From a virus, in UHGV virus genome UHGV-0358046: 40,202 nt of DNA. One strand, given 5' to 3'. Within the stretch, counting starts at the first letter, position 1; every line of letters begins with the position of its first letter. A program made the position numbers. Below, piece after piece: positions 30,001-33,000 of this stretch.

Positions 30001-33000
30001 CCTGTAGCGAATCCGCACATCGCGCGATGGTCTGACAATATCCGCAACTGGCTGGTTGCCAGCAGACTCGGATCCGCGTTGCTGTCATCGTTCTCTGATC
30101 TTGGAACCATGTATCTGTCTGCGAAGGTTACCAACCTTCCAATGAACCAGTTATTCCGCAACCAGCTTGAAGCTATGGACCCAACGAACCGTACAGAACT
30201 TGCGCGGGCGCGCCGCGCTGGTCTGGTGATGGAATCTCTACTTGGCAGCGTTAACCGCTGGGCGATGGATAATATGGGGCCGTCAGTGTCTCGTTGGGCG
30301 GCAACGGCCGTAATGCGTGCCAGTGGGCTTACAGCATGGTCAGATGCGCACAAGCGCGCCTATGGCGTAACCATGATGGGAAGCCTGGGAGAAGTAGTGT
30401 CACGGACACCAGACCTTCGTAGCCTCGATGACTCTGATTTTCGTATCCTGAAAAGCAAAGGGATTACTGACACAGACTGGAGCGTATGGAAGCTGGCGAA
30501 ACAGGAGGACTGGGGGAACGGTAATAATACGATGCTGACACCGGAAAGCATTATGCGTATCCCTGATTCAGCAGTTAAACATCTTGGTGAGCCTGAACGC
30601 GTGAAATTTGAGGCAATGCGTAAACTGCTCGGTGCCGTAACTGAAGAAGTTGATATGGCTGTTATTACACCGGGAGCACGTGAGCAACTGATAACCGGTT
30701 CTGGTATTCAGCGTGGAACATGGAAAGGTGAATTAACGAGAAGTGTTTTCCTGTTTAAATCGTTCCCTATCTCGGTTGTTATGCGTCACTGGTCACGCGC
30801 TATGGGTATGCCGTCTGCTGGTGGGCGTGCGGCATATATTGCGACGTTTATTGCCAGTACGACCATTCTTGGCGCTTTGTCGCAGCAACTTAACGACCTT
30901 GCGTCTGGTCGTAATCCTCGAGAGATGACAGGAGAAGATGCCGCAAAATTCTGGCTTGGTGCTCTACTGAAAGGTGGTGGTCTTGGCCTTTACGGTGACT
31001 TTTTATTGTCAGATCACACTAGGTACGGAAGCGGCGCGCTGGCGTCGATGCTTGGCCCGGTAGCTGGTCTGGTTGATGACGTAGTGAAGATTGCTCAGGG
31101 CATACCGTTAAATGCTGTGGAAGGGAAGAGTGAGCAGACTGGTGGTGATCTGGTGAAGCTGGGGAAAGGTTTGATGCCTGGTGCGAATCTCTGGTACTTG
31201 AAGGCGGCTCTCGATCACATGATCTTTAACCAGATGCAGGAGTATTTTTCACCAGGCTATTTGCGTAAAATGGAGCAACGTTCGAAGAAAGAGTTTAACC
31301 AGACATACTGGTGGCGACCACAGGATGTCACTCCGCAATAAAAGGAGATATGATGGTTCAAATAACTTTTATTGTACTAATATGTGCAGCGTTTTTATGC
31401 TATTCATACATTTTGATAAAAATGGGTTTCAATTGGAATCTCTGTTGCGTGCAGCGGCATGGTTCGGCTTTGTAGTATTCGGAATTGTATTGTTCGGAAG
31501 AATAATAAAATAACTAGTTAATTTGTGGATTGGTGCTGTTTTTCCATGATAGGGGTAATTATGAGAAAAGTATTTTTGATTTTTGGATTTATGCTTCTCG
31601 TTGGATGCCAGTCAGCTGCACAGTTTGAAAGAAATATGCTTACGTGGCGCGGGCAGAGTATAGACGCAATGGTTCAGCAGTGGGGGTATCCTCAGGGAGA
31701 GCTTACATCTCCAGATGGAAACAGAGTGTATGTTTACTCAAGCTCTGGTAGTTATAACGTACCACAAACCACAACGTATAATACTACGTCTAATCTAATT
31801 GGTAATACTATATATTCAAACACATACGCAACAACTGATGGCGGTTATACACTCCATTTCAGTTGCTCTGTTTACGTTGAGTTTGGTGCTGATAAGATTA
31901 TTAAAAATGTTACATGGCGCGGTAATAATTGCGTTGCGTGACATGTCACAGGCCGCTTTCGCGGCCTTGTTTTTAACGAATGCCACCGCCGCCCGGGCGG
32001 GAATCCGCAGACACAAAAAAGCCCGCGGCGCGGGCTTAAAGAACTATTTTATTGGCAGCTTATGCTTTGAAATTATGGCCAATCTGTTTTGGAAGTTTTC
32101 CGCATCACCCCACAACCAGGTTTCACCTTTCTCAAGTTCTTCCTCGTTATTCATCTCTATAAGTTCGCATGTCATCATGTCGTAACCATAGAGATGGAGG
32201 CCAAGTTCCAGTGCGTCATACATGCGAGCCTGCCAGAACGACATGCCTTCATGAGTCTGGTTGCGATCAGACACGATGATATCGTACCGTTCCAAGAGGT
32301 AGTTCATGAAGATGATGCCAGCGAAATCATGAAGCACAGCACGATGCTTAGGCTTCTGGGTTCTCCATACCAATATCTGCGTGACAGGACGGCAGTTAAG
32401 ATAGCTGTCAGGCTGGATAATGACACGATTGTAATACACTACCTCTTCGGTGAGGTCATTTATCAATGACAGTTCAAAGTGCGCCTGTGGAATCTCGCCT
32501 TTCTTACGATCGTCTACACGGACAACGCGGTATCCAGGAGCCAGAGAAACGCCTTTGACATCAGATGTGACATCGTTGCCGTTCACTAACTCTGAATACA
32601 GGGCGCGGTTGTCTGGAGTTTCGTTCAGATGAGCGAAAACCTCAGTTACCTTTGCCGGATTCAGCAGTTGTTGTGGCATACATCACCTCATAATATATAG
32701 ATGCTTCTTTAAGCGGGATTTACCATTAGGGTAAATGAACTATCCGAATGTTAAACGCCTTCGTACTCGTCAAATTTTCTCATGTGGGCTCCTCCTGTAT
32801 CGGTGCCTAATCGCTATGGATCACCCGTGAGGTAATAGTACGCTATTCACCCCCAGTCTGCAATCTGTACAGAATTATTTAAAGGCACATCCCTGTGCCG
32901 CCGCCCGTCAGAAGAATCCTGCTTTGTCGTTGATGTACTCCGCGTGAGTCTGGATATCACGCAGGCATTTACTCACACCGACGATGTAGCAGAACATGGT

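Follow-up and report, generated by a model that had tools for sequence, protein, structure and literature searches.

The gene read from 32679 to 32044 on the minus strand of the window (the whole 40,202-nucleotide stretch that was analysed) is a real and strongly conserved accessory gene, and the slot that holds it is a hypervariable cargo site of a Uetakevirus-type prophage. It encodes a 211-aa protein of the phrog_1349 family, which in its predicted structure has an acetyltransferase-like fold (GNAT, acyl-CoA N-acyltransferase). Our joint reading, to which we give an even chance of holding in full, is that this is a slot-borne, repressor-controlled early accessory gene whose GNAT-fold product is most likely an acyltransferase, and that a 10-codon mini-ORF upstream of it is a relic.

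Taken as a whole, the window represents an E. coli prophage of the phiV10/epsilon15-like type, with a K1 endosialidase as its tailspike. Its structural genes run on the plus strand (15894-31341 and 31525-31941) and the tailspike gene occupies 34367-37486. The 211-aa gene (32044..32679) is antisense to both, and an initial reading made from the sequence alone (the sequence-only reading) had already placed it correctly against the structural operon; every sequence feature described in that reading is found at or close to the position given for it. It starts with ATG, and a Shine-Dalgarno sequence, GAGGTGA, can be read 3 nt before the start codon (32683..32689, minus strand); the same sequence is present in two simpler relatives, L047 and L048. 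The direct upstream neighbour is a Bro-N antirepressor gene (ant; 32908..33645, minus strand), assigned by Pfam (Bro-N, E 2e-13), by phrog_130 (Ant), and by the IAI39 annotation.

The dN/dS of the 211-aa gene is 0.03-0.08, its product has 94 close homologues, and at E<=1e-3 the relatives form 922 clusters (50% identity); together these figures identify the gene as real. phrog_1349 is a large family without annotation, and its 211-aa member stands alone. Grouping of 202 neighbours from fifty-six loci gave 145 clusters and 140 Pfam families, with no conserved partner gene among them. Those upstream gaps that were noted are mostly longer than 100 bp. Homologues in Photorhabdus and Xenorhabdus lie outside prophages and have different upstream sequences, so regulation appears to be specific to context. 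The more distant representatives come from contigs that are short metagenomic pieces, and their gene context is of little use. Longer family members were also searched for fusions that might hint at function, but both extensions found were uninformative (a weak Phd/YefM-like stretch, E 0.0026 and below threshold, and one DUF5397 tail). A literature search covering the protein, SF0880, phrog_1349, and DUF4760 found nothing useful, and functional or expression data were found for none of the phrog_1349 family members.

The sequence-only reading recognised no family for the protein, and our searches agree. Pfam, NCBIfam, and PADLOC returned no match, and HMM searches of the PDB with two profiles gave only noise. 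GNAT family profiles (Pfam Acetyltransf_* and NCBIfam) matched neither the query nor fifty-one of fifty-three diverse members; the other two matched non-GNAT families, on terminal extensions. None of 105 profile matches carried a Pfam domain, and a second profile search, of a set of 5.8 billion proteins, found no relative bearing any Pfam domain. An hhalign comparison of the family profile with RimI (a sequence identical to 5isv_A) gave a probability of 0.1. Remote-homology search and structure prediction had both been proposed as checks; the first yielded no functional sequence family and the second a GNAT-like fold. The predicted model is a globular alpha/beta protein with the hallmark of GNATs, a mixed alpha/beta fold with a V-shaped splay between beta4 and beta5. 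Its nearest structures within the GNAT superfamily are the C-terminal acetyl-CoA-binding domain of Rv1916/ICL2, NatD/Naa40, Hat1, and AAC(2')-Ia. A large family for which we found neither annotation nor literature now has a predicted assignment at the level of the fold.

The most conserved residues of the family are W105-R106, S137-D138, Q141-T142-x2-G145-x2-F148-W149, and Y164, with R106 present in 88% of members, D138 in 86%, Y164 in 85%, and Q101 in 83%. By our own reading of the secondary structure, the conserved residues would surround the beta4/beta5 splay, which in GNATs is where acyl-CoA and the acceptor bind. With the fold assigned, R106, D138, W149, and Y164 become candidates for the catalytic site. 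On this model the protein would most likely be a small acyl-transferring enzyme, and less likely a binder of a CoA-type ligand.

Some features of the sequence seem to depart from the GNAT canon. The pyrophosphate loop Q/R-x-x-G-x-G/A (motif A, between beta4 and alpha3) is not evident in a register derived from secondary structure rather than from structural alignment; the query reads H-D-F-A-G. The family consensus at the N-terminal end of the long helix reads R117-G118-[LF]-A120; the G is found in 53% of members and the A in 50%. The usual Tyr of alpha4 is replaced by Trp in 98% of the family. The apparent absence of the canonical motif A glycines from the query, the Tyr to Trp change, and the finding of no sequence similarity to active GNATs would all suit a non-catalytic GNAT-like protein whose fold serves to bind a small ligand, of CoA type or another, or else a partner protein, and which acts in regulation, sensing, or inhibition. 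ICL2 of M. tuberculosis has a GNAT-like C-terminal domain that works in this way. However, the canonical Tyr is missing from many active GNATs too, and the strongly conserved cluster of polar and aromatic residues at the putative catalytic cleft (D138, R106, Y164, Q101) resembles an active site more than a passive pocket. We regard a non-catalytic role as unlikely.

If the protein is an enzyme, one candidate activity is that of the GNAT toxins TacT, AtaT, and ItaT, which acetylate aminoacyl-tRNA and arrest translation; the gene would then be a one-gene toxin or an abortive-infection effector. That a YafO toxin is another cargo of the same slot speaks for this possibility. In the known GNAT toxin-antitoxin modules (TacAT, AtaRT, ItaRT, KacAT), though, the toxin has an adjacent and usually overlapping RHH/DUF1778 antitoxin gene. 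There is none beside the 211-aa gene, the fifty-six loci gave no conserved neighbour, and the gene has no tie to the 10-aa mini-ORF. Structure matches to these toxins are no better than those to about 200 other GNATs, and many chromosomes stably keep a homologue as a single gene. A toxin of this kind is, in our view, highly improbable.

Mu Mom and AcrVA5 (an anti-CRISPR acetyltransferase) act in phage–host conflict and, like the 211-aa protein as predicted, are small phage-encoded proteins with a GNAT fold. A Mom protein is among the BFVD structure matches, though the match is weak (E 1.4e-3, TM 0.34), and no sequence relation was found. An acyltransferase of this sort would modify a target in the host or in a competitor. 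Extended to the whole family, the proposal is that phrog_1349 (>900 clusters) consists of unrecognised, widespread, and highly divergent GNAT-fold enzymes, which temperate phages would turn on at induction to acylate a specific target of the host or a rival phage. We offer this tentatively and place its chances clearly below even. If true, it would mean a new mechanism of counter-defence or host takeover, and the Uetakevirus slot would be a repressor-controlled hotspot of early accessory genes.

The extent of the slot is clear from a blastn comparison with L002, a relative with DUF4760 as cargo. The common flanks stop at 32038 and restart at 32738, leaving an exchangeable segment (32039..32737, minus strand) that comprises the second copy of a palindrome, the ribosome-binding site, and the gene. 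Part of a 971-bp slot query is matched by 488 of 5426 E. coli genomes, many of them over one flank only, and thirteen hold the 211-aa gene. At least six cargo types occur in the slot. Besides the 211-aa gene, we found DUF4760, YafO with a 59-aa ORF, a pair of 55 and 147 aa, a pair of 62 and 110 aa, and the paralogue WP_001260052, 30% identical to the 211-aa protein; in phage Tyrion the slot is empty. PADLOC v2 matched neither the 211-aa protein, nor its paralogue, nor any alternative cargo. The sequence-only reading had suggested a moron, and the gene is indeed an accessory gene in a variable slot. It has the ejection-protein genes to one side and the tailspike to the other, and is served by a predicted promoter and by a terminator.

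As in other phage morons and hotspots (the HK97/lambda morons, the sieA region adjacent to P22 immI, P2/P4), what lies between the conserved genes is one gene, served by a predicted promoter and a terminator, that some relatives have and others replace; here it adjoins an antirepressor module and the tailspike. The difference is that promoter and terminator here belong to the slot rather than to the gene, and that the slot promoter bears a phage operator, so that the cargo is predicted to be early lytic rather than lysogen-expressed. The arrangement we propose for the interval bounded by the ejection-protein genes and the Bro-N antirepressor would be a predicted promoter and operator, one exchangeable cargo, and a common terminator. 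This group of E. coli prophages has one recognisable cargo slot, with a fixed predicted promoter–operator and a fixed terminator, through which at least six unrelated cargos are exchanged, none of them in current defence catalogues. Should these cargos prove to be conflict genes, the slot would be a compact natural library for phage accessory functions.

The predicted slot promoter (32835..32863, minus strand) consists of a -35 hexamer TTGCAG (32863-32858), a 17-nt spacer, and a -10 hexamer TACTAT (32840-32835). It was read from the sequence; with agreement at seven of twelve consensus positions it is weak, and it falls under the threshold of our scan. This promoter and the operator abutting it are conserved in every variant, and the cargo begins downstream of them. 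At the far end, the terminator scan found an intrinsic terminator for the slot transcript (32009..32037, minus strand), with an 8-bp G+C-rich stem at 32037-32019 and then TTTTTGTGT, and a convergent terminator for the structural/lipoprotein transcript (31950..31967, plus strand). The gene had first been described as insulated, with a terminator of its own at 32011-32035. There is a predicted terminator at that place, but it is part of a conserved framework, in a flank (31938-32038) common to relatives with other cargos. The insulation is one-sided as well: between the gene and the antirepressor there is only a weak hairpin just past the antirepressor stop codon (GGCACA-GGGA-TGTGCC, 32884..32899, minus strand), which has a poor T tract, is absent from the terminator-scan output, and is unconvincing as a terminator. 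Read-through out of the Bro-N antirepressor gene may contribute to expression of the 211-aa gene as well.

The exchangeable segment contains a perfect palindrome, TTACC-CTAAT-GGTAA (32720..32734), which lies downstream of the predicted promoter by about 100 bp. This motif is far more frequent than chance would allow. With at most one mismatch, TTACC-N5-GGTAA has fourteen copies in the window against 0.66 expected, a number reached by none of 100 shuffles, and in an unbiased tally of perfect 5-N5-5 palindromes the TTACC arm has ten copies and every other arm two at most. One copy with a single mismatch (TTACC-TCACG-GGTGA, 32821..32835) lies at the slot promoter, a position where every cargo variant has an operator. 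Another (33868..33882) is at the antirepressor promoter, where TTGCAA-17-TATATT abuts TACC. The gene for a 194-aa HTH repressor (6349..6933, minus strand; Pfam HTH_3, E 1.2e-9) lies between two pairs of copies, one at 6215 and 6277 and one at 6989 and 7037, and further copies occur at other intergenic regions. Most abut -10-like hexamers, and the TACTAT-TACC abutment recurs at 6277 and 12360. The same layout is found in TL-2011b, whose first 15 kb contain seven copies, and in Tyrion, which has nine. Tyrion has a repressor 78% identical to ours and an identical operator, and so provides no heteroimmune contrast in covariation.

Judging from these positions, the palindrome is probably the binding site of the phage's own repressor. 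The earlier claim of an operator is thus very probably right, but the operator is not private to the 211-aa gene: the motif is genome-wide, occurs at the repressor gene and the antirepressor promoter, and cargos such as YafO and DUF4760 have it at their slot promoter too. We also rejected a reading of the palindrome as an RNA hairpin, since a transcript would start inside the palindrome, whose left arm is overlapped by the -10 hexamer, and since the motif recurs at promoters across the genome. The copy at 32720-32734 could serve as an additional operator or as a roadblock; its counterpart in L047 and L048 directly abuts the -10 hexamer.

Because one operator is common to the flanks of the repressor gene, the antirepressor promoter, and the slot promoter, the 211-aa gene is probably repressed in lysogens and on at induction. 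The prophage repressor would silence it in the lysogen, and SOS induction or infection would switch it on together with the antirepressor. Such timing would fit an early lytic accessory function, for example in counter-defence or host takeover. Overexpression of a repressor from this phage group and of the Bro-N antirepressor has been found to shift the lysis–lysogeny balance of a Uetakevirus (PMC9782041).

The position of the gene could suggest a different function, namely defence expressed by the lysogen (superinfection exclusion or abortive infection, as the sequence-only reading speculated), constitutive or leaky, that blocks other phages. In P22-like phages, accessory and exclusion genes adjoin immI and the tailspike, and the slot is in an equivalent position. 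It is also hypervariable in the manner of defence hotspots, with a YafO-family toxin and small two-gene modules among its alternative cargos, and a SIR2_2 protein is encoded two genes away from one distant family member. The operator copy nearest the promoter carries one mismatch, so that expression could leak in lysogens. Nevertheless, the antirepressor and early promoters have this operator as well, and the expectation is then that lysogens repress the gene; a defence role is further disfavoured by the null PADLOC results for all cargos, by the globular alpha/beta model, and by the many homologues that are chromosomal and outside defence islands. We consider lysogenic defence improbable and favour an induced, early function. 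Induction rather than lysogen expression, as suggested here, would change which assays are suitable, toward counter-defence and host takeover and not phage exclusion alone.

The regulatory layout has a parallel in the C1 regulon and immI of phage P1, whose many C1 operators are dispersed and whose ant gene has a c4 antisense RNA upstream. In our prophage, too, one operator sequence is spread over roughly a dozen intergenic regions, that of the antirepressor promoter among them, and C4/isrK RNAs are found upstream of ant, the C4 antisense RNA together with its a1/b1 target. P1 operators are asymmetric 17-mers; ours is a symmetric 5-N5-5 palindrome, in an epsilon15-like podovirus. The prophage also adds to the P1 scheme a small antirepressor-like gene under putative LexA control, with a LexA box upstream of an 85-aa gene resembling the Ant C-terminus, in keeping with control by the SOS response.

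Between the slot promoter and the cargo lies the mini-ORF, MRKFDEYEGV* (32783->32751, minus strand; 32751..32783), preceded at a 7-nt spacer by a perfect AGGAGG (32791..32796, minus strand). Both are present as first described. AGGAGG followed after 4-10 nt by ATG or GTG occurs three times on the two strands of the window, and the other two instances open ORFs of 161 and 216 codons. The mini-ORF is not, however, a feature of the 211-aa gene, since it belongs to a flank common to DUF4760-type cassettes and is absent from L047 and L048, which keep the gene. A role as regulator of the gene is unsupported, given this absence and the outcome of an attenuator test in the window, where the mini-ORF has no terminator after it and shuffled sequences fold as well as its leader does (z +0.46). 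In L002, with its DUF4760 cargo, the mini-ORF is identical and is followed by a terminator hairpin (z -2.3); in our prophage it looks like a relic of recombination, a leader left from a DUF4760-type cassette.

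The window DNA is 91-98 per cent identical to Escherichia phages of the phiV10/TL-2011b/ZX5 type, which belong to the genus Uetakevirus, the epsilon15-like podoviruses. The integrase gene (193-1443) is followed by a leftward early operon with RecT and exonuclease VIII, a minus-strand gene for a 194-aa HTH repressor (6349-6933; Pfam HTH_3, no peptidase domain), and the replication, terminase, and structural genes up to 31341. At the far end are the Bro-N antirepressor gene ant (32908-33645, minus), a small 85-aa gene (33914-34171, minus), and the tailspike gene (34367-37486, plus). 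The tailspike has End_N_terminal, beta-propeller, beta-barrel, tail-spike, and S74 chaperone domains and is a full endosialidase; the prophage therefore targets the K1 (polysialic acid) capsule. The 211-aa gene (32679->32044, minus; ATG start, GAGGTGA ribosome-binding site) is antisense to the plus-strand structural genes, as the sequence-only reading had said, and to the tailspike.

That reading also placed the gene in a moron position, and other cargo does occupy the same variable slot in relatives: a DUF4760 protein, a YafO-family toxin with a 59-aa ORF in front, gene pairs of 55+147 and 62+110 aa, a 53-aa membrane protein, or WP_001260052, a 210-aa paralogue (L085 584-1216, minus; 30 per cent identity; phrog_1349, E 3e-113). 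Phage Tyrion has the slot position without any cargo. Some part of a 971-bp slot query matched 488 of 5426 complete E. coli genomes, many of them through one flank only, and only thirteen of the 5426 carry the 211-aa gene. Among the E. coli prophage matches listed, the paralogue is commoner than the window's version. It is also present in phiV10, Phi05_2388 B, and phage LLS, and at least one strain (L078) has a frameshift in it.

When the window is aligned with the DUF4760 variant by pairwise blastn, the exchanged segment spans 32039-32737. The common left flank (31938-32038) includes both convergent terminators, and the common right flank begins at 32738. After the ant stop codon, all variants share a weak hairpin and, behind it, TTGCAG-17 nt-TACTAT. 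In every cargo variant the final T of TACTAT also opens a TTACC-N5-GGT(A/G)A palindrome; the cargo lies further downstream. This arrangement argues that the predicted promoter and terminator are properties of the slot and not of the 211-aa gene. The intrinsic terminator attributed to the gene is indeed present (8-bp G+C stem at 32037-32019 plus a T tract, minus), but within the shared flank. The structural operon ends with a lipoprotein-like ORF (31525-31941, plus; signal MRKVFLIFGFMLLVGC; phrog_3716, function unknown). Different genes stand at this place in relatives, and it is therefore a second variable slot, converging on the same terminator region.

The predicted mini-ORF MRKFDEYEGV (32783-32751, minus) and its perfect AGGAGG, seven bases upstream, were found exactly as described. 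The whole window has just three AGGAGG-N4-10-start arrangements, and the remaining two belong to ORFs of 161 and 216 codons, so the initiation site looks genuine. Both elements lie in the flank common to the DUF4760 variant. In that variant (L002 3626-3760, minus), a strong hairpin, ACGGGGCC-ATTA-GGCCCCGT-TTTC, begins 15 nt past the mini-ORF and is followed by the DUF4760 start codon. Its leader folds better than shuffled sequences (z -2.3, MFE -40.8 kcal/mol) and the predicted fold pairs the mini-ORF start region with the U tract and CAUG past the terminator; the window's leader is not better folded than its shuffles (z +0.46). Mini-ORF and terminator hairpin are, on these predictions, a candidate leader-peptide attenuator of the DUF4760 cassette. 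Two relatives with the same gene (L047 and L048; protein 96-99 per cent identical) have it directly behind the promoter-operator, without the mini-ORF. From this comparison the window's slot is a composite with its junction at 32738: promoter, first operator, and DUF4760-type leader on one side, and another copy of the operator with the 211-aa gene on the other. The mini-ORF here is best read as a relic.

The palindrome upstream of the gene (TTACC-CTAAT-GGTAA, 32734-32720) also reads as claimed, and it is not confined to the slot. Allowing at most one mismatch, TTACC-N5-GGTAA occurs fourteen times in the window against 0.66 expected, a number reached in none of 100 shuffles. When every perfect 5-N5-5 palindrome was counted without bias, TTACC arms came up ten times and no other arm more than twice. 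Nearly all fourteen sit between annotated genes: upstream of the integrase gene (136), around the repressor gene (6215, paired with a perfect TTGACA -35, and 6277 to one side; 6989 and 7037, with a degenerate third copy between them, to the other), between the replication genes and the next ORF (9276, 9338), just before the small terminase subunit gene (12360, 12378), upstream of the head-tail adaptor gene (15568), in the cargo slot (32720, 32821), at the antirepressor promoter, picked up independently by promoter scan (TTGCAA-17-TATATT; 33868), and upstream of the 85-aa gene (34248). In most copies the first T of TTACC ends a -10-like hexamer. The pairs 6215/6277 and 9276/9338 have an identical spacing of exactly 62 bp. 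TL-2011b has seven perfect copies within its first 15 kb, similarly arranged about the repressor, replication, and terminase genes, and Tyrion, whose repressor is 78 per cent identical to the window's, has nine copies.

The simplest reading is that the palindrome would be the operator of the phage repressor; its fourteen copies, scattered much as the C1 operators of P1 are, look like a repressor regulon. The proposal of an operator thus fits, but not of one belonging to the 211-aa gene, given copies window-wide and at the slot promoter of all cargo variants. The presumably repressor-controlled cargo slot and the fourteen-copy putative operator are the most useful by-products of this analysis.

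The 85-aa gene has a consensus LexA box, TACTGTATAAACATACAGT, just in front of it (34192-34210, minus); its product resembles the antirepressor's C-terminal domain (phrog_450, phrog_1760) and is probably a small antirepressor under SOS control. Immediately ahead of the Bro-N gene, Rfam identifies a C4 antisense RNA (33649-33736, 78.6 bits), an isrK-like Hfq-binding RNA (33755-33831, 74.7 bits), and the c4 target a1/b1 (33792-33844), all minus; this is the immI-type RNA control upstream of ant known from P1/P7, here in an epsilon15-like podovirus. LexA box and RNAs fit an antirepressor-driven switch. In a phage of the same genus, overexpressing the repressor, and likewise the Bro-N antirepressor, shifts the lysis-lysogeny balance (PMC9782041). 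On this view the 211-aa gene would be kept off by repression in the lysogen. Once derepressed, it would be transcribed from the slot promoter, with read-through from ant as a possible second source. A lysogen-expressed exclusion or abortive-infection gene would suit the hotspot character of the slot, yet we think it unlikely given the operator at the slot promoter and the lack of any known defence signature in PADLOC.

Sequence searches against Pfam, NCBIfam, PADLOC, and PDB gave no match for the protein, in line with the sequence-only reading, which recognized no family. It is a member of phrog_1349 (function unknown), with ninety-four close homologues, all unnamed and 36-95 per cent identical, from Salmonella, Dickeya, Serratia, Klebsiella, Yersinia, Erwinia, Xenorhabdus, and Photorhabdus. 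An exhaustive profile search extends the family to 922 clusters at 50 per cent identity, almost all single-domain and of about 200 aa. Against close relatives, dN/dS of the gene is 0.03-0.08. Across fifty-six loci the neighbours are scattered over 145 clusters and 140 Pfam families, and so no partner gene emerges; a TacT/AtaT-like toxin, here without any antitoxin partner, is accordingly a very improbable identity.

The assignment to the GNAT fold is solid. Residues N24, Y82, Q101, W105, R106, F124, D138, Q141, T142, G145, F148, W149, A156, Y164, W190, and G191 are conserved family-wide. We mapped beta1-4 to 50-56, 66-74, 79-89, and 99-106, alpha3 to 110-131, beta5 to 134-136, and alpha4 to 143-158; on that reading W105-R106, S137-D138, and T142-x2-G145-x2-F148-W149 would surround the beta4/beta5 splay. 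The last of these is spaced like GNAT motif B (N-x2-A-x3-Y), except that Trp replaces Tyr. The motif A loop looks non-canonical (R-G-[LF]-A in the family, H-D-F-A-G in the query). Profile and HMM comparisons gave no sequence-level link from the family to GNATs, and catalytic competence is therefore something we infer. With motif A apparently missing and an ICL2 domain as the top structural match, a non-catalytic GNAT-like ligand-binding or regulatory protein deserves mention, though we give it little credence. An early-expressed, stand-alone GNAT-fold accessory protein is the reading we favour, with about even confidence; its most likely activity would be acyl transfer to a target in the host or in a competitor, serving counter-defence or takeover of the host. 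Neither the architecture, with a moron occupying a variable slot, nor the GNAT fold is new in kind; the phrog_1349 family itself is undescribed as far as literature searches show.

The protein starts with Met-Pro (window 32674-32679), a pair that never varies within the close family and that about 65 per cent of 139 diverse representatives share. It could reflect a processed Pro-1 or an N-terminus that binds in the protein's own cleft; model confidence is low in this part. A single anecdote is P0130, a distant member on a metagenomic contig (L083 450-3233): two genes away from it is a protein with a SIR2_2 domain, which is common in defence systems. The Photorhabdus member is chromosomal and flanked by 127-bp ERIC-like repeats (L073, L075, 4724-6276). 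This 1553-bp unit is 99.5 per cent identical at two unrelated loci, which suggests repeat-mediated duplication or transfer; its neighbours are LuxR-solo and RtxA genes at one locus and carotenoid genes at the other.
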